The position numbers and the translations under genes were made by a program. This document shows, in pieces, positions 6,181 to 32,769 of a stretch of DNA of 64,000 nt. The stretch comes from Patescibacteria group bacterium. GTDB taxonomy: Bacteria; Patescibacteriota; Patescibacteriia; UBA10025; JAHIVO01. Under the pieces are notes generated by a model. The model had not been told where the DNA came from. It made no database searches and was given only the letters and a program-made list of their open reading frames with translations. The stretch's first letter is position 1. Each line of letters begins with the position of its first letter. The stretch is taken from positions 18,680 through 82,679 of the forward strand of contig JBAZWB010000003.1 of the NCBI GenBank assembly GCA_041660605.1. Direction: 5' to 3'.

Positions 6181-6240
6181 ATCGCGGGTCCCCGCCTGCC
6201 TTGCCAGTGCGGCGGGCAGGTCTGCGCCCGCGTTCGCGCC
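6181..6240. repeat. GC-rich structured repeat, copy A (CCCCGCCTGC ... TGCGGCGGGCAGGTCTGCGCCCGCG).
   Basis: The 25-nt core is identical to copy C at about 18125-18149. Hairpin GCGGGC/GCCCGC. Confidence 0.7.
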
Positions 6241-6288
6241 AATAAAACGCACACACACCGCAAAACGGGGCGGTTTTTACTGTAATAA

Positions 6289-6318
6289 AAACGGACAAGT
6301 ATTGAAACCTGTCCGCTG
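6289..6318 (-). terminator. Terminator for hutU on the minus strand.
   Basis: On the minus strand: CGGACAGG-tttcaatac-TTGTCCG followed by TTTTTATT. Confidence 0.45.
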
Positions 6319-6355
6319 TGTTTAGTAATGCTTTTGGGTTACTTAGGCGCAACCG

Positions 6356-8404
6356 TCAAGCAATAGATGCATCGACCGCTTTGCTGACGACATCGTCATC
6401 AGCGATAAAGGGAATCATAACCTGGAGTCTGGCGTCGTCATCCATGGATTCCGTAATGGCCCAGATGGCATTGGGATTTCCGGCCCACGCGCGGCGAGCC
6501 AGCCCGTTGTTCACGTCAATTGCCATCAGGCGCTTGATGCGTTCAGCCACCTCCACGGAACCATCCAGCGCGATGCCGAATCCGCCGTTAATAGCGTAAT
6601 TGAAGCCAACCCCGCCGCCGTTGTGTATGCTTACCCAGTCAGCGTGCGCAGTCGCGTCGCCAATGAAATTCTGCACTGACATGTCGGCGCACACGTTGCT
6701 GCCGTCCAGAACATTGGACGTTTCGCGGTACTTAGAATCAGTGCCGCCCACATCATGGTGATCCCTGCCGATCACCACCGGTCCGATCTCCCCGCTGGCA
6801 ACAGCCCGGTTGAAGGCGAGCGCAATGCGCGTCCGGCCGACACGGTCGCTATAGAGAATCCGCGCCTGACTACCGACGACAAGTCCGTATTTGCCGGCAT
6901 TTTCGATCCAGTAAAGATTGTCCTCATACTGCTGCCGTATCTGCAGAGGAGCTCTCACAAGCAACTCCCGGATAACGTCAGCGGCAATCTCGTCAGTCTT
7001 CTCGAGATCCTTAGGATCTCCGCTCAGGCACACCCAGCGGAACGGGCCGAAACCGAAGTCAAAGCAGATCGGTCCCATAAGATCCTCAACGTACGACGGA
7101 TACCTGAACCTGGTATCATCGGCCATGATATCGGCTCCCGCATTTCTTGCCTGGAGCAGGAAACCGTTGCCGTAGTCAAAGAATTTCGTCCCGCGTTCAG
7201 CCATGGCGTTGATGGCGCGAACGTGTTCCCGCAGTGATTCCCGGACAAGCTCCGTGAAACGTCCTGCATCGGACTTGATCATCTGGAGCGCATCCTCAAA
7301 GCTGATCTGGAACGGGAAATACCCGCCGGCGAACGGCAAGTTTAGAGAAGTCTGGTCAGACGCGAGATCAACCTGGATATCCTCAGTGATGAGGCGATTC
7401 CACAGATCAACGATGTTCCCATGGTACGCGATTGAGAGCGGCTGCTTTTCAGCAATCGCACTTTTCATGGCAAAGATTATGGCATCAAGGCTATCGGAAT
7501 ATGAATCAATCCAGCCTTTTTCAATGCGTTTCTTGATCGCCTTCAGATTCACCTCGGCGATGACGCAGACAATGCCTAGTATCTGCGCTGCCTTGCCCTG
7601 GGCGCCCGACATGCCGCCAAGCCCCGAGCTGACGAAAACTCGACCACGCAGATCCTTCATGTCCGTGATTCTGTAATACTCACGGAAGGCGTTGAGCAGT
7701 GTGATATAGGTGCCGTGCACGATTCCCTGCGACCCGATGTACATCGCGCTGCCTGCCGTCATTTGGCCGTACAGGGTCACGCCTTTCGCGGCGAGATTGT
7801 CATAGTCAGCTTCAAGCGGCGCAGACATAAGCCCGTTCACGATCACGGCGATCGGATCAAAACCTCTGCGCGCCGGGAACTTGCCGAGCGGATGGCCGGA
7901 ATACAGCTTAAGCATCTGATCACGGTCTAAGGTAGCGAGCGCCTGCATAGTGATCAGGTATTGCACCCAATTCTGGAACACGGTACCGGTACCGCCGTAA
8001 GTGACCAGTTCGTCCGGGTACTGCGCGTTCTGCGGATCAAGGTTGTTCATATACATGAGCTGCAGGGCGCGTGCCGCCAGCGTATTACCGGGGTACCAGT
8101 CGATCGGATACGCCATGATGGGATACGCCGGTTTGAACCGGTACATGTAGATGCGTCCGAAAACTCTCAGTTCGGTCGCAAACTCAGAAGCGAGAATCGC
8201 GTGCCACTCCTTGGGAAAATAACGGAGCGCATTTTTGACCGCCTGTTTTTTCTCCTTGGTTGTCAGGGTGTTTGGCCGGGCAGGTGCATGGATAGCGTTC
8301 ATGTCGTACACCGGCGTCGGTGGAAGCTCACGCGGAATTCCTGCAAGGATAGCTGTTCTCAGCCTATTCTTGTCCATTGCTTGTGCCATCTGATTTTCCT
8401 CCAT
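6356..8404 (-). CDS. hutU: Urocanate hydratase (urocanase), long form of about 680 aa.
   Basis: Full-length match to urocanase: MTAGS-x-YIGSQGIVHGTY, SSGLGGMSGAQ and GGGVGF NAD-binding motifs. About 50% GC against a ~40% background. Confidence 0.9.
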   Translation of the reverse strand: MEENQMAQAMDKNRLRTAILAGIPRELPPTPVYDMNAIHAPARPNTLTTKEKKQAVKNALRYFPKEWHAILASEFATELRVFGRIYMYRFKPAYPIMAYPIDWYPGNTLAARALQLMYMNNLDPQNAQYPDELVTYGGTGTVFQNWVQYLITMQALATLDRDQMLKLYSGHPLGKFPARRGFDPIAVIVNGLMSAPLEADYDNLAAKGVTLYGQMTAGSAMYIGSQGIVHGTYITLLNAFREYYRITDMKDLRGRVFVSSGLGGMSGAQGKAAQILGIVCVIAEVNLKAIKKRIEKGWIDSYSDSLDAIIFAMKSAIAEKQPLSIAYHGNIVDLWNRLITEDIQVDLASDQTSLNLPFAGGYFPFQISFEDALQMIKSDAGRFTELVRESLREHVRAINAMAERGTKFFDYGNGFLLQARNAGADIMADDTRFRYPSYVEDLMGPICFDFGFGPFRWVCLSGDPKDLEKTDEIAADVIRELLVRAPLQIRQQYEDNLYWIENAGKYGLVVGSQARILYSDRVGRTRIALAFNRAVASGEIGPVVIGRDHHDVGGTDSKYRETSNVLDGSNVCADMSVQNFIGDATAHADWVSIHNGGGVGFNYAINGGFGIALDGSVEVAERIKRLMAIDVNNGLARRAWAGNPNAIWAITESMDDDARLQVMIPFIADDDVVSKAVDASIA

Positions 8405-8539
8405 TAGTTCTATGGCTACTGGTTTAAGTTTGTTTTCGATGCAAAAATATTATGATGTAAAGAGCAAAATATCTGACTAGCTTAATATAATAGACCAAGC
8501 TTGTCAAGAAAAGAATAAGGAAGGAACGCCGTTACCCCA

Positions 8540-8612
8540 TCCCCCGAACGCGGGTGCCGCGCCCGACTGCTTCGCACTCGAAGCGGGCGGGTCTCCGCCC
8601 GCGTTCGCGCTT
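8540..8612. repeat. GC-rich structured repeat, copy B.
   Basis: GCGGGCGG-GTCT-CCGCCCGC is a perfect 8-bp hairpin. The tail GTTCGCGC is shared with copy A. Confidence 0.6.
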
Positions 8613-8787
8613 GTTTTAACGCGCCAACGAGGGTAATATTAAATTAAAGGAGATAAATTACTGTAGTCAAACGCTGGAAGTTTAAAGAAAAAAGTATGGT
8701 TATAAGTATTAAGTTTATAAAACATTTTAATCTTCAACTTACTTCCATTCCTTCTTCCATCAACATTAAATTTATAACAACACGCCA

Positions 8788-9039
8788 ATGTACTTCCTCT
8801 ACATCCTGAAATGCAAAGATAAAAGCCTGTACACGGGCATTACCACGGACTTGGTGCGTCGGCTGACAGAACATAGCACCACGGCTCTCGGGGCAAAATA
8901 TACCAGAGCCAGGCGGCCGGTGAAGCTGGTTTACAAAAAAAGATTCCGTACCCGGTCAGCCGCCGGGCGGGAGGAAGCGAGGATTAAAAGTCTGCCGCGG
9001 CCGGAAAAATTAAAATTAATTCAAAAGGTAAGGAGGTAA
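8788..9039 (+). CDS. GIY-YIG domain nuclease-like protein (UPF0213 family).
   Basis: YFLYILKCKDKSLYTGITTDLVRRLTEH matches the GIY-YIG signature. Confidence 0.7.
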   Translation: MYFLYILKCKDKSLYTGITTDLVRRLTEHSTTALGAKYTRARRPVKLVYKKRFRTRSAAGREEARIKSLPRPEKLKLIQKVRR

Positions 9040-9086
9040 AATTCGCGATTAGCGTTCATATCGTAATTTTAATTAATTAAAATAAT

Positions 9087-9587
9087 ATGGACTACAAAAA
9101 ATTCATCCGCGAGCAAAAAGAGCGCAAGCGCGTGGACATGACTTTGCTTTTCAATAATGCGCCGGCTTTTGCTTCCCTGATCAAAGAAATGATCCAGCCG
9201 TTTGTTAAAATTAAAATCGACAAAGTCGCGGCCATTGACGCGACCGGCTTTGTGTTTGGCACGGCCATTGCCCGGGAATTAAAAGTTGGGATGGCAGTAA
9301 TCAGAAAACAGCATAAGATCGCCTGGTCGGTAAAATTTACCACCTTTACTGATTATTCCGGCATCACCAAAGGGCTGGAAATCGCCGATGACGCGATCAA
9401 GCCAGGCGAGCATATTCTGATCGTTGATGACTGGTCGGAAACCGGCACGCAGCTGCGAGCGGCCATCACCCTGGTTGAACAGGCCGGCGGTATCGTTAGC
9501 GGCGCGAGCCTGGTGCACATAGACAAACGTGCATTGCAGGACACCAACCTGACAAAATACAAATTGCATTCGGCCGTAGAATACTAA
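9087..9587 (+). CDS. Type I phosphoribosyltransferase, adenine-PRTase-like.
   Basis: PRPP-binding loop ILIVDDWSETGTQL and APRT-like architecture. 166 aa. Confidence 0.6.
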   Translation: MDYKKFIREQKERKRVDMTLLFNNAPAFASLIKEMIQPFVKIKIDKVAAIDATGFVFGTAIARELKVGMAVIRKQHKIAWSVKFTTFTDYSGITKGLEIADDAIKPGEHILIVDDWSETGTQLRAAITLVEQAGGIVSGASLVHIDKRALQDTNLTKYKLHSAVEY

Positions 9588-9604
9588 GAACATTCTTTTG
9601 CCGT

Positions 9605-10090
9605 TTACAGCCAGCGCCGGACACTTTTAACGTAATTTATATATTCATCACCGAATTTTCTGGTCAGGTACTGCTCTTCCCGCGGGATGATCTGCTGGTT
9701 AATGATGAAAAAAACCGCCACGGCCACGAACAGCGCCCAGATAATCCCCATCAACCAGGCTAAACCAAGATAAGAGAGCAGCATGCCCAAATACATGGGA
9801 TTCCTGGTTGTATTATAAACACCGCTTCGTAACAGTGTGGTCACCGGCTTGTCCGGTATCGGACTGTTTTTGTTTTGACGGAATAATGACAAGGCGGTAA
9901 CCATAAAAAATGCCCCGGCGAGTATCAATATTGCACCCCACCAGCGCATTTGCCAGTTCAGAGGCATGAACGGTATGAATCTTTGCAATATTAGGCCAAT
10001 TGTAAAACCCGCCAAATAAATAAGCGGCGGCGGTACTTTGATGCCGGCGTTGTCTGCCTGAATATTATCTATAACATATGCTCTGGCCAT
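9605..10090 (-). CDS. Membrane methyltransferase of the ICMT/PEMT family.
   Basis: Conserved RNPMYLGMLLSYLG block and 4-5 TM helices. Confidence 0.55.
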   Translation of the reverse strand: MARAYVIDNIQADNAGIKVPPPLIYLAGFTIGLILQRFIPFMPLNWQMRWWGAILILAGAFFMVTALSLFRQNKNSPIPDKPVTTLLRSGVYNTTRNPMYLGMLLSYLGLAWLMGIIWALFVAVAVFFIINQQIIPREEQYLTRKFGDEYINYVKSVRRWL

Positions 10091-10181
10091 AAATCATAAA
10101 ATTAATAATTAATTGTCCAAATTAACAATACGCCAGTTACATTAAATAATCATTAATGGCTGATAGCACAGCAGCTGACTA

Positions 10182-10212
10182 ATAAAAACGGGGGTCGAAG
10201 ACGACCCGCCGT
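10182..10212 (-). terminator. Rho-independent terminator on the minus strand.
   Basis: Minus strand: CGGCGGGTCG-tctt-CGACCCCCG followed by TTTTTATT. Confidence 0.5.
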
Positions 10213-10239
10213 TACTGTTTTGTGATGACGCTTTTGTGG

Positions 10240-10620
10240 CTAGGCACTTGCTACGAGTAAAGTCTGGTGCTGGCGGAACAGGCGCGGGAGATTGTAAGAG
10301 CATAATGCTCCGATACCCCATAACCCGCCCTGTATGAGACCGAACCAATTTTCGCCCCACTCGCCCTCCGTCAGCATAGGGCCTAAGTACGGGCTGAAGC
10401 TGGCTAAAAACGATCCAGCCACTCCGACGACTTCAATCCCGAACCAAATGCTTAGAGCGATCAACATGAGATTATTCGGCCGACGGCGAAAAATCATGCC
10501 GCAAACCGCGCCGGCGCCAACAGACATCGCGATAACTACCAAGGCAAGCCAGTTAACAACTACCCAATGTACCATTATAAACCTCCTGCAAACATCATTT
10601 ATTTTTTCAATTCTTTTCAT
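10240..10620 (-). CDS. Hypothetical membrane protein.
   Basis: Hydrophobic ORF. The start is uncertain. Confidence 0.35.
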   Translation of the reverse strand: MKRIEKINDVCRRFIMVHWVVVNWLALVVIAMSVGAGAVCGMIFRRRPNNLMLIALSIWFGIEVVGVAGSFLASFSPYLGPMLTEGEWGENWFGLIQGGLWGIGALCSYNLPRLFRQHQTLLVASA

Positions 10621-10670
10621 TCTAATTGATGTGCCTGCCTCCTGTCAATGGCCGAAATCCACTGCACTAT

Positions 10671-10707
10671 GCACAAAAAAGGAGTGGGCTCTTGCGAATC
10701 CACTCCC
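10671..10707 (-). terminator. Rho-independent terminator for the gene at 10727-11041.
   Basis: Minus strand: GGGAGTGG-attcgcaagagc-CCACTCC followed by TTTTTTGTG. Confidence 0.55.
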
Positions 10708-10726
10708 AATAATTTGAGATTTGGCG

Positions 10727-11041
10727 TTAATGCGCGTCAACGGTCTCAAGCTCGCTCAGCGGAAAAAACCCCTGCTCATACACAAACGCGTACTCCTGGT
10801 GCTCCTCCATTCCGTCAATATTGAGCGTATAGCAGTCCCCTTTGCCGCCGACTATCTTCCCGGCAATAGTAATCTTAAGCGCCTCCGTACCTTTATCGGT
10901 CGGTATAGAGCCGACTTGGCCAATTTCGCATTGATTACTAACCGCATAGCAATGCACACTTGTTGACCGGTAAAAGATTGCCTCCCTGACACGCTTGAGC
11001 ACGACGCCGATGTCGGAAACTTTTACACCACGTTTATCCAT
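10727..11041 (-). CDS. Hypothetical cytoplasmic protein.
   Basis: ORF with a terminator downstream. No family recognised. Confidence 0.45.
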   Translation of the reverse strand: MDKRGVKVSDIGVVLKRVREAIFYRSTSVHCYAVSNQCEIGQVGSIPTDKGTEALKITIAGKIVGGKGDCYTLNIDGMEEHQEYAFVYEQGFFPLSELETVDAH

Positions 11042-11193
11042 TATTCCTCCCGAAATAACAATATGTTTTTTTATTTTTATCAGTGTAACATACTAAAGAA
11101 CCTGGTCAAGCATTTCTGCTCAACCCCGCGTGATATCAGCCATAATTTCTGTTATACTTATTATCAGAAATATAAATATTATAAAAATTATCA

Positions 11194-11493
11194 ATGGAAA
11201 ACAAAACTGCAACAAACCAGCCAACCGCATCCGCGGCACCGGGCCAGCCGCAGAACCTCAAAAAAAATGCCACCACCGGCATGATTCTCGGCATTATCGG
11301 CCTGCTTGCCTGGCTTCTCCCGTTTATCGGCTACCCGGTTACTATTGTCGGGCTTGTCCTGTCAATCCGCGGGCTAAAATCGACAAAACAAAAGCAGGCC
11401 ATTGCCGGCATCATAATGAATGGCATCGGACTGGTTGCCACGGTGGTTAATTCTGTCATTGGCGCCTATCTCGGAGCGACCGGCCAACTCTAA
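11194..11493 (+). CDS. Small membrane protein, DUF4190-like (Gly-zipper helices).
   Basis: GMILGIIGLLAWLLPFIGY..GIIMNGIGLV and two TM helices. Confidence 0.45.
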   Translation: MENKTATNQPTASAAPGQPQNLKKNATTGMILGIIGLLAWLLPFIGYPVTIVGLVLSIRGLKSTKQKQAIAGIIMNGIGLVATVVNSVIGAYLGATGQL

Positions 11494-11508
11494 TCAGTTA
11501 ATGATATA

Positions 11509-11547
11509 AAAATTCGCCTACAAATGATATTGCAGGCGAATTTTTTA
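11509..11547. terminator. Bidirectional rho-independent terminator.
   Basis: AAAA-ATTCGCCTAC-aaatgatattgc-AGGCGAAT-TTTTTT between convergent genes. Confidence 0.6.
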
Positions 11548-11549
11548 AT

Positions 11550-12764
11550 TTATTGTGATGCTGGCGTATTATTTGCTGGCGCAGCAAGACAGCAGGGATG
11601 ATTTGGGTATTTTTTGCAACTTATGTTAGTGCAGTTGTTTGGAGTAGAGTTGCAATTCAACGGTTGCGTAAGAAATAAATCGCTATAAGCTTTACCATTC
11701 GTATCATAGAACTGGACAAACCAGCCATGCGCATCAATCGTGCGGGCCGGCATGCATAAGCTTTTTAAACCATTCGGGGTCTGGACTGATAAATTAAAAC
11801 GGGCATAGGCAGTAGGTGTATCTTCATTATTTGCACCAAGTACAAAAAGCGGACTGCCGTGGTCTATCAGGTCAACTGTACCCCCTGATTGCCATCCGAG
11901 AACAGGATTATAATAGCCATACACCGTGTTCCAGCTTTTTGCCAGGGTAAAATTTATTTGATCAGGCAGGCTGACTTGCCCGGCCAGCGTAACTCCCGAG
12001 ATTTCCGTGGGAGAGTAATTCTTGGCCACCAAAGTTTGGCAATCAGCAGCCGACACTCGCTGGGTCAGATCTTCATCCCAATAAGCATTCCCGTTTATAT
12101 CAAAATAATAATAAGTATATGCGGGCGGTTCTGAGTTTGTATTCTGGTTTGTATTTGTATCCGCTTGCGCCTGAGCCGCGTGTATCAGGCCGAATAGCTT
12201 CGAGTCGCTGGATTGAAAGCTCAGGGGATTAGCGGTGGCTTTTTCCGGAATACAGATAACTTTCCTTTCACCGGTAATAACCTGGGCACTGGCTTTTTTA
12301 ATCAACTCAATTCTCGAGGTTTGATTGGAGGCCGGCAATGATCCGCTATAGCGCAGGGTAATGAACATGGCGGGATGTATGGTGGAATCTATTGCAACTT
12401 TTAATCTCCAGGGATTGGTATAAGTCTGGCCATCCTGAAATTCAGGCTGTGAAGTTGAAAATTTCCCAAAATATGCATCCTCGCCAATACTTGCGCCACC
12501 CGGTAAACCATAAAATTTTACTTCGGTAAAGCTCTCGCTGGTTGAGGAGTGGTCAATAGTCCAATCAGCAAAAGAAATATCTCCCAGCGTAAAATAATTA
12601 GTAGACTGCACGGTGTTTTGGGACTGGGTACTGGCTGGCTGGCTAATTAGCACGCTAGCAAAGAACATGCCGGCAAAAAAACCGCTTATAACTCCGGTTA
12701 TAATAAAAACTGCCGTGGCTGTACGAGTATTAGTCAATACCTCGGTCTTAACTTTTGTCTCCAT
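11550..12764 (-). CDS. Secreted or membrane-anchored hypothetical protein with a Cys-rich C-terminus.
   Basis: N-terminal TM/signal anchor. The C-terminus reads CNSTPNNCTNISCKKYPNHPCC. Confidence 0.45.
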   Translation of the reverse strand: METKVKTEVLTNTRTATAVFIITGVISGFFAGMFFASVLISQPASTQSQNTVQSTNYFTLGDISFADWTIDHSSTSESFTEVKFYGLPGGASIGEDAYFGKFSTSQPEFQDGQTYTNPWRLKVAIDSTIHPAMFITLRYSGSLPASNQTSRIELIKKASAQVITGERKVICIPEKATANPLSFQSSDSKLFGLIHAAQAQADTNTNQNTNSEPPAYTYYYFDINGNAYWDEDLTQRVSAADCQTLVAKNYSPTEISGVTLAGQVSLPDQINFTLAKSWNTVYGYYNPVLGWQSGGTVDLIDHGSPLFVLGANNEDTPTAYARFNLSVQTPNGLKSLCMPARTIDAHGWFVQFYDTNGKAYSDLFLTQPLNCNSTPNNCTNISCKKYPNHPCCLAAPANNTPASQ

Positions 12765-12972
12765 TTTTTTGTATTTTAATTATAATTTTTATTTTATCTA
12801 ATATTAGCCTTATTATATCACAATTTTCATCAAAAGTCAACTAAACAAGCATAGATATTATATATTTGAATTAACCTTCCCTGACGGCAATTAATTTTAA
12901 TCCACAAAACCAAATAAAAAACCTCTGCCGTTGCCAGCAAAGGTTTATTTGTTCATGCGCTCAGCGTGGTTA

Positions 12973-13662: not shown

Positions 13663-13771
13663 AACGGGAACACATTGTCAAGCCCTCTATATAATAAATA
13701 CCTTGTTTTAAGCCGCCAGTGAGGGTAGTATTTAATTACAGAAGATAAATTATTAACCGCCAAATAGCCCT

Positions 13772-14842: not shown

Positions 14843-14909
14843 AAGACACTCATGAAACCAGCCATTAAAAAACTGCTGCGTAAAAGTTAAGGCAAAATAA
14901 TAATAAACT

Positions 14910-15943: not shown

Positions 15944-15960
15944 AATGAGGTAAAAAAAAT

Positions 15961-16057: not shown

Positions 16058-16122
16058 CACCGCACCCCGCTGTGGGTGCGGTGCGCTCCAAAATGGGAAG
16101 CGCGGGCGCAGCGGCCCGCGCT
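16058..16122. repeat. GC-rich structured repeat, copy D.
   Basis: Two perfect hairpins: CACCGCACCC/GGGTGCGGTG and GCGCGGGC-gcagcg-GCCCGCGC. Confidence 0.55.
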
Positions 16123-16623: not shown

Positions 16624-17886
16624 ATGAAACACAAACTAGCATTACTCGTCATGGTCGCCCTGGCATTCTTTGCCACCGGCGCCGGCTCACAGTACGTCGC
16701 GGCAGTGCCCACGCCTGCGGACAGTTCCTATTTGGAACAGTTCGTGGGAAAGCCTTACAGCGTGAACCAATCACGTGTTTGGCTAGACATCTGTGCGTTG
16801 AATCGGGACAGGTTTCCGGACTCTAACAAGGTACAGCCCGGCGATACCATCCGCATGCCGTTGGGGAAAACCTACGTGGCGCAGTCTGGAGCCGCTGACC
16901 ACATGTGGACAGCATCAGTATCATTTATGGGATCAGAAGTGATGCCATATTTGATGGGTTTTTGGTCGTATACTCATGCGGCGAAGCCGGACACACAGCC
17001 CAACGCGCCAAAAACTACCACCACGGTAGTTCAGGCAACCAATTACGGTTGGTGGTGCTGGCAAATAGTTGGTCTGATTATCGTCGGTGGTATCATTATC
17101 GCCATCCTACTGCTGAATAGAAATCGCAAGCGGAATGAAGAGTCAGCGAAAAGTGCTAGTGAACAACTGGAACGCAACCGTCGGTTCGTGCCTGATCCGC
17201 CTGACTTCGAACACAGCCAAGAACGCGTTGTCGCCGCCCATGCGGAGGACGCACTCCGGCGTACACTCGGACCTAACTTCAAGAGAGTTGGTCCAGTAGT
17301 GAAGGGTAAGGCTAACGGAACCCTCACAGCGATAAATGCCGACGGTACCACTCAGACGCAGCAGTTCAACGATGAGCTGGCATATGCAATGGACGTCGAG
17401 GGACCGGATGGCACTCGTTTCAGACTTTTCTGTCGGTGGGGGTGTTTCAATCTAGTCGCTGGTAGCGTCGGCGCTTCATTCGTCGGCACATTCAGCCCAA
17501 TTGACGGTAGCACCCCGATGATAGTTCCTGCCATGACTTCTGAACTAATCGATAAGATCACTCAGAAAGTCAGGGGCGATGACATCGAACTTAGCGCAGC
17601 TGAGTTCCCTGGCGCTGTCACGGCAGAAGTCACGCCGACTATCGTTACTCCGGTAAAGACCGCTGCTGACGCCATAGTTACGGATAAGCCTAAATCTGAC
17701 GGGATCATGCGCTTCACCAAAGTGCAGCTTTCAGCAGAGAAGGGCATTAACTTGGAGGGGGATGATATCTGCCTTTCAGTTGACCAACTGTTTGAGCTAG
17801 TTTATCAGGTAACTGGGAGGCTTCCAAAAGAAGTAAAGCAGGCCAAGGACGCCACCGCGTCAGATCCTGCCCATCCTGACGATTAA
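16624..17886 (+). CDS. Signal-peptide protein with a LysM-like extracellular segment, a central TM helix and a long cytoplasmic tail.
   Basis: SD GGAGG 7 nt upstream of the ATG at 16624 (the GTG at 16594 is less likely). QPGDTIRMPLGKTY is LysM-like. About 55% GC. Confidence 0.5.
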   Translation: MKHKLALLVMVALAFFATGAGSQYVAAVPTPADSSYLEQFVGKPYSVNQSRVWLDICALNRDRFPDSNKVQPGDTIRMPLGKTYVAQSGAADHMWTASVSFMGSEVMPYLMGFWSYTHAAKPDTQPNAPKTTTTVVQATNYGWWCWQIVGLIIVGGIIIAILLLNRNRKRNEESAKSASEQLERNRRFVPDPPDFEHSQERVVAAHAEDALRRTLGPNFKRVGPVVKGKANGTLTAINADGTTQTQQFNDELAYAMDVEGPDGTRFRLFCRWGCFNLVAGSVGASFVGTFSPIDGSTPMIVPAMTSELIDKITQKVRGDDIELSAAEFPGAVTAEVTPTIVTPVKTAADAIVTDKPKSDGIMRFTKVQLSAEKGINLEGDDICLSVDQLFELVYQVTGRLPKEVKQAKDATASDPAHPDD

Positions 17887-18012: not shown

Positions 18013-18094
18013 TAGCTGGTATGCGGAGTGCTTAAACAATGCGCGGGCAAAGGACACGCGTTTGGGGGTTGTGAAACGCCGTCATACACCCTTG

Positions 18095-18150
18095 CCCAGA
18101 GCGGATCCCCGCCTGCGGAAGCCATGCGGCGGGCAGGTCTGCGCCCGCGA
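18095..18150. repeat. GC-rich structured repeat, copy C.
   Basis: CCCCGCCTGC plus the 25-nt core TGCGGCGGGCAGGTCTGCGCCCGCG, identical to copy A. Confidence 0.7.
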
Positions 18151-18235
18151 TGGGTCCATCCAATATAATATTAACGTCTTGTTTTAACATGGAAACAAAG
18201 GTAAAATTCTTATATATTAAACGATAAAAAAAATT

Positions 18236-18721
18236 ATGGAAAACTACAACCCCAAAACCGACTGCTGTCCGCGCTTTGACCCCAATCCGTGGGACGGAAA
18301 AACATTTGACTGGCAGGATAAGAAATTCATCAAAGACAAAGTATTTACCGCCTTTAACATCCCGATGAATTTCGGACAGGTGGTTAAGCGGATGAACGCC
18401 AAGATTGACGCGGCCGGAGCAAAAGCGCTGGACTGGATGTCGCTCTCCGACCATACTTCCAAATGGAATATGGACCTGTATATCGCCGTTGACAAAGAAG
18501 TGCCGGGCGCGGAGAATGTCACCTTGAGCGGGAAATACCTTAGCAAAGTGTACGAAGGCGATTTCCGGGAAACCGGCAAGTGGTGCCAGGATTTTATGGA
18601 GTACGCAAAACAGCAGGGTTACACTGACGTCAAGAAATGGTACATGTGGTACACCACCTGCCCCAAGTGCGCCAAGAAGTACGGGAAGAATTACGTGGTG
18701 ATAATTTCAAAAGTAAATTAA
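18236..18721 (+). CDS. Hypothetical protein, first gene of a four-gene run.
   Basis: ORF only. Conserved Cys and Trp residues but no assignable family. Confidence 0.45.
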   Translation: MENYNPKTDCCPRFDPNPWDGKTFDWQDKKFIKDKVFTAFNIPMNFGQVVKRMNAKIDAAGAKALDWMSLSDHTSKWNMDLYIAVDKEVPGAENVTLSGKYLSKVYEGDFRETGKWCQDFMEYAKQQGYTDVKKWYMWYTTCPKCAKKYGKNYVVIISKVN

Positions 18722-20865: not shown

Positions 20866-20867
20866 AA

Positions 20868-23586: not shown

Positions 23587-23605
23587 GGAGAGCGTTTCTT
23601 CCAAT

Positions 23606-25262: not shown

Positions 25263-25319
25263 GTTTAAAAAATGTCTAATTAGAAATTAAACATTAGGAA
25301 TTAGAAATTATCAATTAAT

Positions 25320-26417: not shown

Positions 26418-26437
26418 AAAATTAAGTTGCCCGCACT

Positions 26438-26673
26438 CCATCATTATTCTATATAATGATGTTTTTACGCATATCTTTCCCCCCGCTATTATAAAAAATT
26501 TAAAAGAAAAAGGAGCGAGGAGGAATGGTTGCCCATGGGCAACCGCGTTGTACTGTTTGAGCGAACGCAGCGAAGCGAGGAGCGAGTTTACAACGCGGAA
26601 TGACAACGAGCCTGTTTTCGTTAATTTCTTTGTACCGGCGCAGCTCTTTTGCTTCTTTTCTGTTTGCACAGAA
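26438..26673. promoter_or_regulatory. Intergenic region carrying several perfect inverted repeats (candidate operator sites).
   Basis: CATCATTAT-tctat-ATAATGATG, the 18-bp palindrome GGTTGCCCATGGGCAACC, and TTCTGT-ttgc-ACAGAA. Confidence 0.4.
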
Positions 26674-26721
26674 AAGAAGGAACATAATCACATTACTCCC
26701 TTTTTTTGCTATACTAAATAT

Positions 26722-27153
26722 ATGGATAATCCTGATAAAAATCAGCATATCAAAGTCGGCCTGGGCGTCATGTTATTCAAGGATGGCAAAGTGCTGCTCG
26801 GCAAGCGCCGCGGCTCGCATGGCGAAGGCGAATATGCCTGGCCCGGCGGGCATTTGGAATATATGGAATCAATAGCTGACTGTACCAGGCGAGAAGTACG
26901 TGAAGAAACCGGCATGGAAATTACCAATATACGGTTCTTGCGCCTGCTGAACTTAAAAAAATACGCCCCTCAGCATTATGTAGACATTGGCATGATTGCA
27001 GACTGGAAAAGCGGAGAACCGCAGGTGCTGGAACCGAACCGCATAGAATGCTGGGATTGGTACCGCCTGGACAGCCTGCCTGCCCCGCTTTTCGGCACTA
27101 CCGCCAGTTATTTAGAAGCGCTCAAAAGCGGTAAAAACTTTTTTGACTTTTAA
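26722..27153 (+). CDS. NUDIX hydrolase (MutT-like).
   Basis: Nudix box GGHLEYMESIADCTRREVREETGM. This is the first ATG after the upstream permease gene ends. Confidence 0.75.
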   Translation: MDNPDKNQHIKVGLGVMLFKDGKVLLGKRRGSHGEGEYAWPGGHLEYMESIADCTRREVREETGMEITNIRFLRLLNLKKYAPQHYVDIGMIADWKSGEPQVLEPNRIECWDWYRLDSLPAPLFGTTASYLEALKSGKNFFDF

Positions 27154-27157
27154 ACTT

Positions 27158-27658
27158 ATGATTATTCCCTCCATCATCAACCGCCGCAGCATCAGGAAAT
27201 TCCAGAATAAACCGGTGCCGGAAAAACTGGTCAATGAAGTGATAAAAGCGGCCCAGTTCGCCCCCACTTCGCGAGATAACCGTTTGGTGGAGTTTGTGGT
27301 GGTAAATAACCCTGAAACCAAAAAGAAAATCTATGAGGCCGCCATACCGCCTCAGGAATTTTTGTTAAAAGCGCCGGTGCTGGTCATCCCCGTCACTGAC
27401 CCGTCAAAAACCAACCAGCCGGTGCAGGACATTTCTTTGGCCACTGCCAATATTTTCCTGCAGGCAGCGGAGCTCGGCCTGGGTACGGTATGGAAAAATC
27501 TGAAACCACCGGCAGCCGGAGAAATTAAAAAAATCCTGAAAATTCCCGAGGAATACTTAATTATCAATATCATCCCACTGGGCTATCCGGCAGAAACGCC
27601 TGACCCTCATACTGATGACTATTTCCAGCCGGATAAAATTCATCCCGAAACTTGGTAA
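27158..27658 (+). CDS. Nitroreductase family protein.
   Basis: RRSIRKFQNKPVP..LGTVW pattern. ATG at 27158. Confidence 0.7.
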   Translation: MIIPSIINRRSIRKFQNKPVPEKLVNEVIKAAQFAPTSRDNRLVEFVVVNNPETKKKIYEAAIPPQEFLLKAPVLVIPVTDPSKTNQPVQDISLATANIFLQAAELGLGTVWKNLKPPAAGEIKKILKIPEEYLIINIIPLGYPAETPDPHTDDYFQPDKIHPETW

Positions 27659-27705
27659 TACCCTCCCTAAACCCCCTTAAAAATCCTTATAATTATTAAC
27701 ACCCT

Positions 27706-28125
27706 ATGTCCTGGATTTTTTACGCCATCTTATCTGCCGTCTTTGCTGCTTTAGTGGCGATCTTCGGCAAAATCGGCATCAGCAAAGTTGACACTACCCT
27801 GGCGACTTCCGTGCGGGCGGTAGTCATGGCGGTTTTCCTAGTGCTGGTCTCGCTGGTACTGGGAAAATCCCAGCTGCTCTCCAGTATTAATAGCAAGGCG
27901 CTGTTTTATATTGTGTTATCAGGAATCGCCGGCGCGCTATCCTGGATTTTTTATTTTATCGCCCTGAAAAACGGCCCGGCTTCCGGCGTGGCGGCGCTGG
28001 ACAGGCTGAGCGTGGTTTTCGTCTTGATCCTGGCCATCCTCATCCTGGGCGAACATCTGACCTGGAAATCCGCCACCGGCATCGGGCTGATGGTGGCTGG
28101 CGCGATTTTGATGGTGCTGAAATAA
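27706..28125 (+). CDS. EamA-like small transporter (DMT superfamily, 4 TM helices).
   Basis: 139 aa, 4 helices, EamA-type sequence. Confidence 0.55.
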   Translation: MSWIFYAILSAVFAALVAIFGKIGISKVDTTLATSVRAVVMAVFLVLVSLVLGKSQLLSSINSKALFYIVLSGIAGALSWIFYFIALKNGPASGVAALDRLSVVFVLILAILILGEHLTWKSATGIGLMVAGAILMVLK

Positions 28126-28218
28126 ACAATCATTTCTAAATTAAAATGCGCATAAAGTAATTTTGCCAATTTTTTGGTATAATATACGCAGGTAAATATA
28201 CAATTAATACAATTGACG

Positions 28219-29088
28219 ATGACAACCCTAGACGAATTCAGGCCTTATCAAAGACACGTTTTTTCACGATTAGCCATTGCCTCAATATTAATAATGGCGG
28301 TGATTGGAGTATCCGTATATTTCATTTATTCCAACCGGATAATGAAAGACATGCAAAATGAATTATTAGGCATTGCCACCCGCACCGCTGCGCTCATCCC
28401 TGTTGCCAGCCACGAAAGCCTGCTGCAGCCGGCTGACCAGCAAAGCGAAAACTACCGGGTGATGGAACTGTATCTCCAATCCGTCATGGCCGGCAACCCA
28501 AGAATTGATGATGTTTATACCCTGCGCCCCACCAATCAGCGGCATCTCATGACCTTTGTCGTCAGTGGTAAAGGCAATGTGGACGAGAATAACGATGGAA
28601 TAATAGAAGAAAACGAACAAAAAGCCATGCTGGGTGAGGAATATGACACCACCGACTTGCCTCAAATGGAAGAAGGTCTAATAAAACCTTCAGTAGATCA
28701 GGCAGTAACTAATGACAAATGGGGCAGCTGGCTTTCCGGATATGCTCCCCTGAAAGACAGCAGCGGGAAAACAGTCGCAATTTTGGGCGTTGATTTTGCC
28801 GCCAAAACGATTTCCCAGGAACGCCATTATATTATCAGGGCCTTATTAATATTTGAGGCTATCTGCACAATCTTACTGCTGTTTGTCGCCTGGCTTATCA
28901 GCAGGCGTGTCAGCTGGCCTTATAAAATGCTGGCTGAAGGAATGAACAGGATTAAACATGGCGACATGCATTTCACTATGGCTGTAAAAAATAAAGGCGA
29001 AGAAGCATTTATCGCCGAACTGTTCAACTCCATACGTGAGACATTCCACGATTACTACAAAAACAAAAAGGAAAAAGAAGGGAAATAA
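28219..29088 (+). CDS. Membrane sensor module: TM, Cache-like extracellular domain, TM, HAMP, with no output domain.
   Basis: Two TM helices flank a ~170-aa periplasmic segment. A HAMP-like segment follows: LISRRVSWPYKMLAEGMNRIKHGDMHFTMAVKNKGEEAFIAELFNSIRETF. Confidence 0.4.
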   Translation: MTTLDEFRPYQRHVFSRLAIASILIMAVIGVSVYFIYSNRIMKDMQNELLGIATRTAALIPVASHESLLQPADQQSENYRVMELYLQSVMAGNPRIDDVYTLRPTNQRHLMTFVVSGKGNVDENNDGIIEENEQKAMLGEEYDTTDLPQMEEGLIKPSVDQAVTNDKWGSWLSGYAPLKDSSGKTVAILGVDFAAKTISQERHYIIRALLIFEAICTILLLFVAWLISRRVSWPYKMLAEGMNRIKHGDMHFTMAVKNKGEEAFIAELFNSIRETFHDYYKNKKEKEGK

Positions 29089-29135
29089 ACCAGTTTTTCT
29101 GCTGTAATTTGGCTGCTTAGCATTATTTAAGCTAT

Positions 29136-29600
29136 ATGGAGAACACGCCGCTGACCCAACAATCATTGCCGCAGAAATCGGCAATAAAGCCGCGCCATAA
29201 AAAATCTGAATACGTCTTTGCCGTTATCTGCAACGCGATTGGGCTTTTCATAATTAACAGCCTGCTGAAATGGGAGGCGCAGTTCATCACTGCTGACTGG
29301 ACTAAGGTTCTGCCTTATTTAAATTTTTCGATAATTCTCAGCCTGGTTGTTTATTTCATTTTTATCTTCTTTGACCGCCGGGGATTTTATTTTCTCGGAC
29401 GTACGGCGATGGATGTGGTGGGAATATTTATACTGATAAAACTATACTTAATTTTTCCTTTTGATTTTAACAAATTTTTCCAGCTGGGCTGGCTTAACAG
29501 CGTCATGCCCTGGCTTCTGTTGCTTGGCGTGATTGGAATAATTATCGGCATCATGGTCAGAATATCCAGATTAGTCTCGGGTAAAAACATTTATAATTAA
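29136..29600 (+). CDS. Hypothetical membrane protein.
   Basis: Multiple hydrophobic helices. Confidence 0.35.
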   Translation: MENTPLTQQSLPQKSAIKPRHKKSEYVFAVICNAIGLFIINSLLKWEAQFITADWTKVLPYLNFSIILSLVVYFIFIFFDRRGFYFLGRTAMDVVGIFILIKLYLIFPFDFNKFFQLGWLNSVMPWLLLLGVIGIIIGIMVRISRLVSGKNIYN

Positions 29601-29606
29601 TTTTTA

Positions 29607-30389
29607 ATGAATAATATGGACAAACCAGAACAAAACCCCCAGCCGCCCCAGTCAGCTCAAAGCCTGGAAATGCTCAAACCGAACGAAGGCAAGGACATAG
29701 AAAAGCCCAAAAAAGGCCATAGTTTGCGCAATTTTCTCATCACCATTATTATCATCCTAATAGTCATCCTGGTCGGACTATCCGTCACTGGATTATATAA
29801 AGTACCAGTACTCTCCGCTATCATTAAAACTGGCCAGCCAAAAGATCTGGGCATAAAAACCAGCGACCAGGCTTATGCCAGCATCAAGGAGAAAATTCCC
29901 ATGACGATTTCCGGAGGCACCATAGATTATTCCTCGCCGGCTGATCAGATATTCTCCGGCCAGATAGACATTGATACCACCACCACTTCCGAGGAAGTAA
30001 CTTCCTGGCTGAAACGATTCCAGGGAAGCGATCAGATTTTTTCTGATGTTCAGGTAAAAAAAATCGAAGGCGGCATGGAAATTTCCTGCCTGGTGAATAA
30101 ATATATAAAAGCGCCGGTTTACGTAAAAGTCATGGTTGACCGGACTTCCGAGAAAAGCGTGGCGCTGAATATAATCAACGCCAAAGCCGGGATGTTCAAT
30201 GTGCCGGATAAATACCTTACCCAGGCGGAAGATTTTTTCCAAAAAAAAGTTAATGAAATCATGGCCGCGGTGCCGGGCTTTTCTATGGAAAAATACGAGT
30301 TGCATGACGGCTATTCCGCTTTCAAAGGCACCTGGCCTGCCAATGTCCGGCCGACTGCGGGGGGATGGAATTCTCTGATAAAAATTTAA
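29607..30389 (+). CDS. Membrane-anchored extracytoplasmic hypothetical protein.
   Basis: Pro/Gln-rich N-terminus, a single TM helix, then a soluble domain. Confidence 0.35.
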   Translation: MNNMDKPEQNPQPPQSAQSLEMLKPNEGKDIEKPKKGHSLRNFLITIIIILIVILVGLSVTGLYKVPVLSAIIKTGQPKDLGIKTSDQAYASIKEKIPMTISGGTIDYSSPADQIFSGQIDIDTTTTSEEVTSWLKRFQGSDQIFSDVQVKKIEGGMEISCLVNKYIKAPVYVKVMVDRTSEKSVALNIINAKAGMFNVPDKYLTQAEDFFQKKVNEIMAAVPGFSMEKYELHDGYSAFKGTWPANVRPTAGGWNSLIKI

Positions 30390-30410
30390 TCAAGTCAAAA
30401 TGCAGATAGC

Positions 30411-31139
30411 ATGAAAACCGGCTGCCCCTATCAATCGTTTGCCAAGCCAGTCATAAAATTCTGTGAACAAAATTTGTGTTCTGCGGTCGTCCAGCCGGCC
30501 AACGCCTGGTCCAACCTGGCATATCTGGTGGCTGGGGTTGTTATTTTCTATTTCAGTCGTCAAGAAAAAATATATTTGAAGGCTTTCGGCCTGCTGGTTT
30601 TGCTGATGGGGCTGACTTCATTTCTTTATCATGCCAGCTATACTTTTCTGGGGCAGATGCTGGATCTGTCCTCAATGTTTTTATTTTCTTCCTATTTACT
30701 GGTGCTGAACTTCCGCCGCACCGGTGGAAAATTATTCACTATCAAAAATCTTGCCTGGTTTTATATCTTGCTAAATGCCATCAGTATCGCGGTAATGTAT
30801 TATGTCCGCTTACTGGGCGGTTTCAATATCGGCATTATAATTTTCGCCCTGCAGGTCGCCCTGGTGCTGCTGGCGGAATTTTATATTTTTAACAAAGGAC
30901 ATCGGGGATATGACCCAAAATATTTATTAATCGGGCTGGTTATCATTGCTGCGGCCGCGGTTTTCTGGATGTACGATTACACCGGGAAATGGTGCGATAC
31001 CAATTATTTTCACCTGATCAACGGCCACGCGCTCTGGCATGTGCTCACGGCGGTTGGCTTGATTTTTGTTTATTTGCATTATAAAATCCAGGCCCAGGCA
31101 CTTCCGTTGCCTTCAGGAAACCCCTTAAAATCCCAATAA
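30411..31139 (+). CDS. Ceramidase-like (CREST superfamily) membrane hydrolase.
   Basis: Seven TM helices with conserved His/Ser/Asp positions (H-SYT, D, HALWH). Confidence 0.45.
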   Translation: MKTGCPYQSFAKPVIKFCEQNLCSAVVQPANAWSNLAYLVAGVVIFYFSRQEKIYLKAFGLLVLLMGLTSFLYHASYTFLGQMLDLSSMFLFSSYLLVLNFRRTGGKLFTIKNLAWFYILLNAISIAVMYYVRLLGGFNIGIIIFALQVALVLLAEFYIFNKGHRGYDPKYLLIGLVIIAAAAVFWMYDYTGKWCDTNYFHLINGHALWHVLTAVGLIFVYLHYKIQAQALPLPSGNPLKSQ

Positions 31140-31149
31140 AATCGATAAA

Positions 31150-31890
31150 ATGCCCCATATCTTGCTGCCAAAATCATTTAGTAAACTTAAATACGCCTGC
31201 TCCGAAAGGCGCGATGGCAATATGTCGTTCCGCCACGGCTCGCGGCCTGAGGTTATGAAAAATAGAAAAAGATTTTTTCGGAAAGTCGCGGTAGCTCCCG
31301 AAAAAATTGTCGTGATGAACTTACGGCATAGCACGAAAATAAAATTCGTGGACTGGCGCGACCGGGGTTTTGGCGCGCTAAAACCGTCAGGGGTCAAGGC
31401 AGACTGTCTGGTGACAAAAAAATCCGATCTCTTTCTCTTCCTGCTAACCGGCGACTGCTTACCAACAATACTGTATGACCCTAAAAAAAATATCCTGGCC
31501 TTGGCTCATCTCAGTCGGCATAATACTGACCGGCTCTATGCAAAAAAAATTATAACAACGCTAAAAAATAAATACCAGTGCCATTCAAAAAATATTATGA
31601 TAGCTATTGGTCCAGCCATACATCAAAAGTCTTATATTAAAGACCATGCCTCCCAGCAAAATAAAGCCAGCTGGCGGCCGTTTATAAAAAAACTTCATAG
31701 AGAAAAAATTGCCATTGATCTGATCGGCTATAATAAAAAGCAGCTCATCAGAGCCGGAGTTTTACCTTCGCATTTTATCGTAGGCAATATAGATACGGCG
31801 GCTTCAAGGCAGTATTTTTCCCACCGGCGATCCGTAAATACCGGACAACCGGAGGGCCGGTTCGCTACGATAGTAGGAATAAATAAATAA
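31150..31890 (+). CDS. YfiH/PgeF/LACC1 family (DUF152) protein.
   Basis: GDCLPTILYD..ILALAHLSRH pattern. Confidence 0.5.
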   Translation: MPHILLPKSFSKLKYACSERRDGNMSFRHGSRPEVMKNRKRFFRKVAVAPEKIVVMNLRHSTKIKFVDWRDRGFGALKPSGVKADCLVTKKSDLFLFLLTGDCLPTILYDPKKNILALAHLSRHNTDRLYAKKIITTLKNKYQCHSKNIMIAIGPAIHQKSYIKDHASQQNKASWRPFIKKLHREKIAIDLIGYNKKQLIRAGVLPSHFIVGNIDTAASRQYFSHRRSVNTGQPEGRFATIVGINK

Positions 31891-31931
31891 ACGCAGACTA
31901 TCAATAAATTTGTTAAACTTTTCTAATACTT

Positions 31932-32561
31932 ATGTCTTACCCATTTTCACGCCATTTATTCAGACTACTGTTTAGCTGGCGTATTGATTCAGCCAGCGGT
32001 CTGGAAAATATTCCCCGGACCGGCCCGGTCATCCTGGTTTCTAACCACGTCGGTGAACAGGATCCGCCCCTTTTGGTTAATTCCGTTATCCAGCATACCA
32101 AAGGAAGGAAAGTCTATGTAGTAACTAAGTGGAAAATCCTTTGGTTCTCTCTCTGGCGGAATTGGATGGGAATAGTTCCGTTATTTCCTGACCGCTCCAA
32201 AACGTTTAAAATTTTAATTAAGCTGATTTCTGGCGGGGAAATAGTGCTGATGTATCCCGAGGGCGGATTGAATGTAAGACCAGTAATTAATCGCGTGAAA
32301 ACAGGTGTCGCCCGGCTGGCGTTGATGACCAAAACGCCTATTATTCCGGTCGGTCTTGAACGCACTGCGCCTCCGCCAAAAACTCACCTTGGCTTTGTAT
32401 TAGAAATTTTTTATGCCCACCTGCGGATAAACATCGGACAGCCGATAGATCTTTCACCCTGGTACGGGAAAACCGTTGAAGGTGGGCTTCTCCAGGAAGT
32501 AAATAGTGAAATAATGAGTGCGGTAGCCAAACTGGCCAATAAAAAATATGAGCCGGAATAA
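31932..32561 (+). CDS. plsC: 1-acyl-sn-glycerol-3-phosphate acyltransferase family protein.
   Basis: NHVGEQD (the HX4D motif) and YPEGG. Confidence 0.7.
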   Translation: MSYPFSRHLFRLLFSWRIDSASGLENIPRTGPVILVSNHVGEQDPPLLVNSVIQHTKGRKVYVVTKWKILWFSLWRNWMGIVPLFPDRSKTFKILIKLISGGEIVLMYPEGGLNVRPVINRVKTGVARLALMTKTPIIPVGLERTAPPPKTHLGFVLEIFYAHLRINIGQPIDLSPWYGKTVEGGLLQEVNSEIMSAVAKLANKKYEPE

Positions 32562-32580
32562 CCAACCTATGAACCCGCGG

Positions 32581-32707
32581 GGCTAATTTTAGTGTTAGGC
32601 CAGCAAGCTGGCCACCTACCCTATCTAATATATGTAGGTGCAGAGCCCCGCCTGCTGCTCCTAGCGGAGCTATGGCGGGCAGGTTGCTCTGCTGGACAGT
32701 CATAGAC
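32581..32707. repeat. GC-rich structured repeat, copy E (about 127 bp), flanked by an 8-nt direct repeat ACCCGCGG.
   Basis: Contains the CCCCGCCTGC and GGCGGGCAGG motifs, the palindrome GGCCAGC-AA-GCTGGCC, CACCTAC..GTAGGTG and GCAGAGC..GCTCTGC. ACCCGCGG lies at about 32573 and again at about 32708. Confidence 0.55.
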
Positions 32708-32769
32708 ACCCGCGGATATAACAAACTATATGACTATCAACACCACGGCCGCACTGAAACGAAAATTGT

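Follow-up and report, generated by a model that had tools for sequence, protein, structure and literature searches.

What are the short GC-rich hairpins that recur between the genes of a Patescibacteria contig, and which enzyme could move them? The question was raised by a stretch of 64,000 nucleotides from a Patescibacteria group bacterium (contig JBAZWB010000003.1, positions 18,680 to 82,679), which is called the window below. A first-pass annotation of the window had described a family of at least five such hairpins (copies A to E) dispersed in AT-rich DNA. We lean towards reading them as a selfish palindromic insertion element, similar to repetitive extragenic palindromic (REP) sequences and Rickettsia palindromic elements (RPEs), which would be serviced by a stand-alone GIY-YIG nuclease. 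The gene calls used were those of the European Nucleotide Archive metagenome contig ERZ27249449 k141_332531 (184,930 bp), which contains the window.

At all five positions the sequences were as described. Every copy lies on the + strand, and the contig's own gene calls agree that the copies are strictly intergenic. A core is common to copies A, B, C, and E; it is made of CCCCGCCTGC(C), a variable loop, and GGCGGGCAGGT. On direct reading, the core arms in register give a stem of 10 bp in which one C·A mismatch is conserved and one T·G pair is a wobble; folding programs favour a slipped register over this stem. The cores are 30–39 nt long in the window and the repeated unit is 64 nt. A second stem, CGCGGG...CCCGCG, surrounds the core in the window, and in A and B the core sits directly in its loop.

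Copy A (6178..6241, +) is a 64-nt unit in which the outer stem CGCGGGT...GCCCGCG encloses the core hairpin at 6190-6221 (CCCCGCCTGCC-loop-GGCGGGCAGGT). It begins 4 nt past the stop codon of the + strand gene 5077-6174, and it was unchanged in a second sample (contig L204). The intrinsic terminator of this gene (6257-6274, +) is a separate, canonical one downstream of the copy, and the terminator of the urocanase gene hutU on the other strand (6317-6290, −) also lies apart from it. Copy B (8545..8607, +) occupies the divergent region from hutU (−) to a GIY-YIG gene (+). Its outer stem, CGAACGCGGG (8545-8554) / CCCGCGTTCG (8598-8607), encloses a diverged core at 8562-8591 (CCCGACTGC...GCGGGCGGG); its DNA fold gave z = −4.0, and it was also called as an inverted repeat. 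Copy C (18095..18158, +), flanked by genes 16624-17886 and 18236-18721, has its core at 18107-18138 and CTGCGCCCGCG behind it. On the left the outer arm is degenerate, and GCGCGGGC at 18041-18048 is a possible distal left arm. Copy E (32575..32715, +) is a 140-nt multibranch composite (DNA fold z = −4.1) with a CCGCGGG / CCCGCGG closure and three inner hairpins, one of which is the core. The third inner hairpin (32640-32692) reads GCAGAGC, the core at 32646-32684, and then TTGCTCTGC. Copy D (16058..16122, +) contains two perfect GC hairpins, 16058-16083 and 16099-16122, and no core. The second of them is the perfect stem that had been reported for D, GCGCGGGC-GCAGCG-GCCCGCGC, with arms spanning 16100-16121 and a plain 6-nt loop.

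The resemblance between the copies is not a product of chance. The 25-mer TGCGGCGGGCAGGTCTGCGCCCGCG, reported earlier as identical in A and C, is exact in both (6208-6232 and 18125-18149); it occurs twice in the window, where shuffled sequences give an expectation of 0.00. The upstream box said to be common to A, C, and E was likewise confirmed, as CCCCGCCTGC is exact at 6190, 18107, and 32646. The repeat finder reported a 64-nt direct-repeat family of A (6178-6241), B (8549-8612), and C (18095-18158), in which C is 78% and B 64% identical to A. A two-arm search of the window (CCCGCCTGC / GCGGGCAGG, at most one mismatch per arm, gap of 4–40 nt) returned A, B, C, and E together with an intragenic hairpin at 48731-48754, and none of 30 shuffles used as a control gave a match. 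GCGGG...CCCGC pairs were found 13 times against 2.7 expected in the window, clustered at A–E. Because of this enrichment, the outer stem may be read as a host hairpin, which has received the core in A, B, C, and E and is still 'empty' in D. D, which has no core, resembles A and B in the outer stem alone; the family thus stands at four full members plus one 'empty' outer hairpin instead of five full copies. The AT-rich setting is also only moderate, since the GC content of the window is 45%. No more copies were found in the 10 kb past either end of the window. The intragenic hairpin is a 24-nt core-like sequence (CCCGCCTGGCAATCGCCGGGCAGG on the − strand) and probably matches by chance among the Cys-codon repeats of gene 47754-49409, in which it lies; this gene encodes a Cys-rich repeat protein of 551 aa that has transmembrane helices at the N terminus and carries GCC/CC motifs.

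The core is not confined to this contig. We scanned one genome per species from 185,579 species (596 Gb) for one exact core variant, the two-arm pattern CCCCGCCTGC-N(8-24)-GGCGGGCAGGT with 21 fixed nt. At least 120 stretches matched, with 124 matches among those listed. About 100 of these 124 lie in loci with a GC content below 55%, and by our own estimate about 0.1 matches would be expected by chance if the whole 596 Gb were 40% GC. The other ~24 listed matches lie in high-GC loci, mostly inside open reading frames (ORFs), and are compatible with chance. Among the listed matches, the low-GC hosts include many Patescibacteria, the source phylum, one of them a single-cell genome. Bacteroidota are represented by an isolate (Aquimarina sp. 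U1-2), by a Flavobacteriaceae contig of 569 kb in which two copies lie, and by a Bacteroidales contig of 6.2 Mb. Further low-GC hosts are Ignavibacteria, Cloacimonadota, Omnitrophota, Planctomycetota, Chloroflexota, Desulfobacteraceae, and Kiritimatiellae. Several metagenome-assembled genomes carry multiple copies of the core hairpin. The loops of the matches vary widely and often fold into small stems of their own, and the flanks of matched hairpins contain nested or tandem repeats of the same motif. This result shows that the core hairpin is conserved across phyla far beyond chance.

Two archaeal hosts are doubtful. The Methanomassiliicoccales locus has a GC content of 60% and looks like a chance match. 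Locus L045, labelled Candidatus Pacearchaeota archaeon, has two homologous proteins in common with the Paceibacterota locus L028, so that the public record is suspected of a naming or binning error; its hairpin variant also closely resembles that of L028. Phages were rejected as the vector, as 2.9 million viral contigs contained only two matches to the pattern. As a separate observation, a composite of about 150 nt ends at the ATG of unrelated genes in six loci (L054, L061, L073, L101, L111, and L115) from Saccharibacteria, Kaiserbacteria, and Paceibacterota. Besides the core hairpin, it contains a CCAGCACC hairpin and a long-range stem GTTATGAGCGAAGCGAGTT/AACTCGCTTCGCTCATAAC. By reading the translations, the genes behind it include ones that are glycyl-tRNA-synthetase-like, rplN-like, rpoC-like, and ABC-transporter-like.

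Copies embedded in genes were found in other genomes, and 16 of 21 of them read in frame through long ORFs; the remaining five lie at apparent gene boundaries or in N-containing sequence. The in-frame host genes include GAPDH, RsmH, TopA, UvrC, PolA (twice), Lnt, and a helicase. Alignment to solved structures placed a hairpin-coded insertion of 10 aa in GAPDH (...VDGLSK[KPARPGSAGG]DMR... vs LDL----P------HKDLR) and a 7-residue gap at the hairpin-coded peptide of RsmH. Removal at the RNA level, by a mini-intron or translational bypass, was considered and rejected: none of the 21 embedded cases is a convincing gene split by a frame shift, so the inserts appear to be translated and not removed. 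Copies inside ORFs favour the antisense orientation (19:6, p = 0.015), and copies between co-directional genes are oriented 18:18. A fixed target site was also discarded. The A|G flanks of the first set had been imposed by the search pattern, and the flanks of the unbiased set are mixed.

What recurs next to the hairpins is a small nuclease gene. Clustering of the ORFs from ~96 low-GC hairpin loci gave generic families (response regulators, ABC transporters, and glycosyltransferases) and one cluster of GIY-YIG proteins of 85–94 aa. A common transposase, also sought among these protein clusters, was not present. A profile search placed GIY-YIG ORFs within 50 nt of a hairpin in L026, L053, and L082 (twice). 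The association was then approached from the protein side with 80 metagenome loci picked solely for encoding relative proteins, which formed 66 groups after removal of near-duplicates. The canonical hairpin lies within 100 nt of the GIY-YIG ORF in 16 of the 66 groups, and the hairpin density beside these ORFs is 33 times that of the rest of the same loci (Poisson p ~2e-21). Three further hairpin types were defined, namely CCTGCCTGCC-GGCAGGCAGG, CCCGCCCG...CGGGCGGG, and CCCCGTGAGAT...TCTCACGGGG, and a hairpin of any of the four types flanks 34 of 91 GIY-YIG ORFs. In L143 and L193 there is a hairpin on either side of the ORF. Protein identity is 57.6% within a hairpin type and 51.2% between types (permutation p = 0.0004). 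The hairpin is thus associated with small GIY-YIG genes both statistically and in its architecture. We found no description of this association in open-access papers or preprints, and an earlier description elsewhere is possible. Short tandem repeats of 7–9 nt were also noted beside hairpins or upstream of GIY-YIG ORFs in L043, L025, L212, and L206 (for example CTATGGT x5, CCTATCA x3, and GCAATCTCT x2).

The architecture is clearest at tRNA genes. A tRNA gene lies within 150 nt of the GIY-YIG ORF in 32 of the 80 loci, always on the same strand and usually 0–25 nt past the stop codon, and the tRNAs are of many identities. In 15 of the 28 inspected ORF–tRNA pairs, at least 10 nt of the tRNA 5' end are repeated just upstream of the ORF, and this fragment abuts, or is split by, a GC-rich hairpin. 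The traceable tRNA copies run from nt 1 to about nt 14–39, and the hairpin enters after nt 9, 11, 20, 22, 26, or 35. The insert is exactly CCTGCC...GGCGGG, and no duplicated flank was found at its exact boundaries in the tRNA copies. The mirror-image layout was also found, with an intact tRNA, the ORF, and then a 3' tRNA fragment that has the hairpin in its anticodon loop or T-loop. ORF-less remnants of the layout lie upstream of tRNAs in genomes of the candidate phyla radiation (CPR), one of them in a 16S–tRNA-Ile spacer. Relative to homologous ORFs and tRNAs, the hairpins are insertions without target duplication.

One contig pair shows presence and absence of an ORF-less composite at a tRNA 3' end. 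In L124, a tRNA-Arg runs straight into its native downstream sequence. In L140, that native sequence is separated from the same tRNA-Arg by an ORF-less cargo of 103 nt, a copy of the T-arm, two hairpins, and a copy of the tRNA 3' end, in this order. At a neighbouring tRNA-Arg, the GIY-YIG ORF of L124 is replaced by the 103-nt cargo in L140. The cargo occurs twice in L140 (602-704 and 100-202; compare L124 1051-1323) and contains two small hairpins. It may have arisen from the cassette as a non-autonomous form.

The window has its own member of this protein family. Its only stand-alone GIY-YIG gene (8788..9039, +; 83 aa, UPF0213/SLX1-like; PF01541, E = 2e-15) starts 176 nt downstream of copy B. 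The invariant columns of the protein alignment are Y5, Y15, G17, R25, H29, and E63. All of them are present in the window protein and correspond to the family's catalytic residues (Tyr, Tyr-x-Gly, Arg, His, and Glu). An identical protein is recorded at NCBI as a GIY-YIG nuclease family protein of a Patescibacteria group bacterium. The nearest solved structures are those of SLX1, a structure-specific endonuclease, and of the UPF0213 proteins 1zg2 and 1ywl, which are of unknown function; the window protein is not close to the long homing enzymes that bind DNA. Its close homologues (65–77% identity) are all from Patescibacteria. GC-rich hairpins lie just upstream of the gene in three of the six distinct loci inspected from this clade; these three are the window, L205 (a composite), and L212 (CCTGCCTG-TCGG-CAGGCAGG). 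No target duplication was found around the window gene when it was searched for there, and no tRNA genes were found in the window.

From these results the following mechanism can be proposed, in which solo movement and the role of the GIY-YIG protein as mover are inferred. The element would be a non-autonomous palindrome of about 20–50 nt with the ends 5'-CCTGCC(C/T)GCC ... GGCAGGC(G/A)GG-3', so that its opposite strand reads CCCCGCCTGCC...GGCGGGCAGGT. Its arms would pair over 10 bp, the T·G wobble and C·A mismatch would confer polarity, and the apical loop would be free to vary. Typically it would insert, without target-site duplication, between genes, into the loops of other hairpins, or into duplicated tRNA fragments, and occasionally into protein genes, where survival would be limited to in-frame copies. 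Copies would build up as nested or tandem composites. In this contig, CGCGGG/CCCGCG hairpins would be the hosts of four nested copies, with one further host, D, still empty. The likeliest servicing enzyme would be the stand-alone UPF0213/SLX1-like GIY-YIG nuclease, because its genes are hairpin-flanked in many lineages and the window's only copy lies beside B. It may recognise the extruded or single-stranded hairpin and cut it at its base, by analogy with the REP-associated tyrosine transposase (RAYT) and REP (PMC3733652).

A broader proposal, which we make tentatively and with less confidence, is that the hairpin and the UPF0213/SLX1-like gene together form an unrecognised class of prokaryotic mobile element with a structure-specific nuclease in the place of a transposase. 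The autonomous form would reside at tRNA genes, where it would duplicate part of the tRNA and leave the spare copy interrupted by the hairpin. The hairpin of 20–50 nt would then spread alone over genomes and phyla, also in frame into essential genes.

Several observations weigh against the selfish-element reading. No filled and empty pair was found for a solo hairpin, nor any direct sign of solo transposition. At about 95% of the hairpin loci there is no GIY-YIG gene within 8 kb, and 57 of the 91 GIY-YIG ORFs lack all four hairpin types within 130 nt. The correlation between protein and hairpin type could mirror host phylogeny and not specific recognition. In the clade of the window protein (the window and five close homologues), three of the six loci are ordinary tight operons with no such hairpin, so the GIY-YIG gene could be a housekeeping nuclease. 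The window copies have also diverged from one another (A/C 78%, with different loops; A/B 64%), and together with the unchanged copy A of the second sample this gives no indication of recent activity here.

The main rival explanation, which we consider unlikely, keeps the nuclease and takes away the independent movement of the hairpin. The hairpins would belong to GIY-YIG homing cassettes as a component, be left by them as a scar, or serve as their target. A homing gene of the free-standing GIY-YIG kind would invade a site, often a tRNA gene, and duplicate part of its target; the hairpin would inactivate the redundant copy or the nuclease site, and recombination would later remove the ORF and leave solo hairpins. 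In agreement with this, every clear case has the hairpin in a non-functional tRNA copy, beside the ORF or an ORF-less replacement, and L062, L022, and L055 resemble a tRNA fragment with a hairpin whose ORF was lost. There is also a precedent in SegB of phage T4, a GIY-YIG homing enzyme in a tRNA gene cluster (PMC2330249). The T4 Seg enzymes share with the present system a small GIY-YIG gene among or against tRNA genes, presence/absence polymorphism, and the involvement of the flanking tRNA. They differ in having DNA-binding domains and long specific sites, whereas the proteins described here are a bare catalytic domain of 80–95 aa, accompanied by a conserved hairpin and a duplicated, interrupted tRNA fragment. 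Neither a duplicated flank nor a remnant of an ORF accompanies the in-frame copies in GAPDH, RsmH, TopA, and others, target duplications are absent from the window copies, and hairpins are nested in one another and in tandem, all of which argues against a homing cassette. The very high ratio of solo to ORF-linked hairpins would also need massive loss of the ORF.

A selection for RNA structure is less probable still. The hairpins would then be cis-acting structures such as stabilisers, RNase III or other processing sites, attenuators, or terminators, and the first-pass annotation had named structured transcript ends as an alternative role. The folds are stable, copy A lies in a 3' untranslated region ahead of a terminator, T-runs stand behind several Paceibacterota copies, and one copy lies in the 16S–tRNA-Ile spacer; REPs are also known to affect mRNA stability (PMC3733652). 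However, the 18:18 orientation of intergenic copies relative to the flanking genes speaks against an RNA role tied to one strand. Copy B stands upstream of the two divergent promoters, and no U-tract or T-run follows A, B, C, or E, with separate terminators present as described above for A. The same sequence occurs in frame within essential genes, and the stem sequence itself is conserved, beyond pairing alone. Transcript ends are therefore a poor description of these copies. Rfam gave no match at gathering score in the window and none on the copies or six hairpin loci at E up to 1–10. A ribozyme, a riboswitch, and a diversity-generating retroelement were rejected as well, because the structure is a plain nested hairpin without orientation bias that also occurs inside ORFs.

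Far less probable is that the hairpins are attC-like recombination sites or cassette boundaries marking acquired genes such as hutU, although attC sites are likewise imperfect hairpins with variable loops. As had been noted earlier, A and B do flank the 55%-GC hutU, and D and C flank another, slightly GC-richer gene. By a combinatorial estimate, four copies placed in ~55 intergenic gaps fall in adjacent gaps about 20% of the time, so this bracketing is statistically unremarkable. The R''/R' consensus (RYYYAAC / GTTRRRY) is absent at the bases of A–E, B having GAAC.../...GTTCGCG. A search of the window genes by scan or annotation turned up no transposase, integrase or other recombinase, or RAYT; the scan covered all but a handful of the called genes. 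Copies elsewhere lie within genes and tRNA fragments. The proposal that the copies mark horizontally acquired cassettes is accordingly not sustained.

The least probable reading, a classical REP/REPIN family moved by a RAYT (an IS200/IS605-type Y1 transposase), can draw on short imperfect palindromes that are extragenic in the window, a mismatch-bearing stem with REP-like strand polarity, and the known occurrence of REPs within genes (PMC3733652), but it has against it that no GTAG/CTAC or CGTC/GACG occurs at or beside the ends of A, B, C, and E, that neither the window genes covered by scan or annotation nor the protein clusters of the ~96 hairpin loci include a Y1 transposase, and that the recurrent neighbour is a GIY-YIG protein.

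The earlier comparison with REP sequences or MITEs (miniature inverted-repeat transposable elements) therefore holds in part. The copies are dispersed, intergenic, hairpin-forming palindromes that exceed chance, but the defining features of both classes fail. The likeness to REP/REPIN lies in short imperfect palindromes, mostly between genes and sometimes in clusters or composites, in stem mismatches that give polarity, and in a gene for the presumed servicing enzyme that is itself repeat-flanked. The differences are that the hairpin family has no GTAG or CGTC tag (for the REP tag, see PMC3733652), that its partner is a UPF0213/SLX1-like GIY-YIG protein and not an HUH Y1 transposase, that its core is common to several phyla where REP sequences are lineage-specific, and that its partner genes are often linked to tRNAs. 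Unlike MITEs, the hairpins have no terminal inverted repeats bounding a cargo and no target-site duplication, and no insertion sequence (IS) with matching ends was seen. The IS200/IS605 elements and their ORF-less derivatives, the palindrome-associated transposable elements (PATEs), also use imperfect hairpins as recognised ends and insert without target-site duplication. This shared mode of insertion suggests a mechanism that acts on single-strand DNA. Two distinct subterminal hairpins, a specific target of 4–5 nt, and a Y1 transposase, as in IS200/IS605, were not found here.

The hairpins also behave like the RPEs, which are selfish palindromes in intergenic DNA, in RNA genes, and in frame in protein genes, where they add a peptide. 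Neither system has a transposase inside the element. RPEs measure 100–150 bp and are restricted to Rickettsiales, whereas the core described here measures 20–50 nt, is found in many phyla, and has a recurrent enzyme neighbour. Length and host range set the family apart from RPE-1 to RPE-8. The GC clusters of fungal mitochondria have in-frame copies in the protein gene var1. Like the present hairpins, GC clusters (e.g. GC42; PMC4478555) are GC-rich palindromes in AT-richer genomes, with a sporadic distribution, horizontal exchange, and merging or shuffling into composites (PMC4478555). They differ in being organellar, in having no sequence similarity to the hairpins and no defined associated nuclease gene, and in the putative target-site duplications reported for them (PMC4478555), none of which were seen here. 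RPEs end in CGTC (PMC3733652).

If the broader proposal is true, it would give a biological role to the widespread UPF0213/YhbQ family, a bare SLX1-type GIY-YIG domain for which structures have been solved and no function has been assigned. REP, RPE, and mitochondrial GC clusters are widespread, and the route of spread is known only for REP/RAYT. The hairpin family offers a core that extends from Patescibacteria to Bacteroidota, clean insertion, tolerance in essential enzymes, and an enzyme candidate that is testable and has strong statistical backing. It would also account for oddities of CPR genomes such as tRNA genes with truncated copies beside them and conserved proteins with short insertions, and its simple motif would let annotators recognise such insertions.

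Some further features of the contig were recorded. The gene hutU (6356-8389, −) has a GC content of ~55% in a 45%-GC contig, has no other hut genes nearby, and is arranged identically in the second sample (L204). This lone high-GC gene may be a horizontal acquisition. A promoter-like module of about 30–60 nt, CTTGTTTTAA..GCC..GAGGGTA.TATT.AATTA.AG.AGATAAATTA, which reads TTGTTT-N17-TAATAT, occurs three times (8610-8670, 13702-13760, and 18178-18208), and hairpin copies B and C each have one of the three modules directly behind them. The module may represent a second small repeat family or a shared cassette, either a promoter or a 5' untranslated region.

Proteins of the bAvd / 23S_rRNA_IVP type accompany diversity-generating retroelements or rRNA intervening sequences. 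A gene for such a four-helix-bundle protein of 117 aa lies on the same contig ~1.1 kb past the window end (L202, 12264-12617), and no reverse transcriptase was seen in the sequence stretch around it. Two tandem paralogous genes, 1242-1631 (129 aa) and 1680-2066 (128 aa), share a 104-nt repeat with 73% identity; in the gene calls Pfam gave no hit for the first and a weak hit for the second. The GC skew is negative over nearly the whole window (cumulative ~−2.7), and most genes lie on the + strand, a combination that is unusual if genes are co-oriented with replication.

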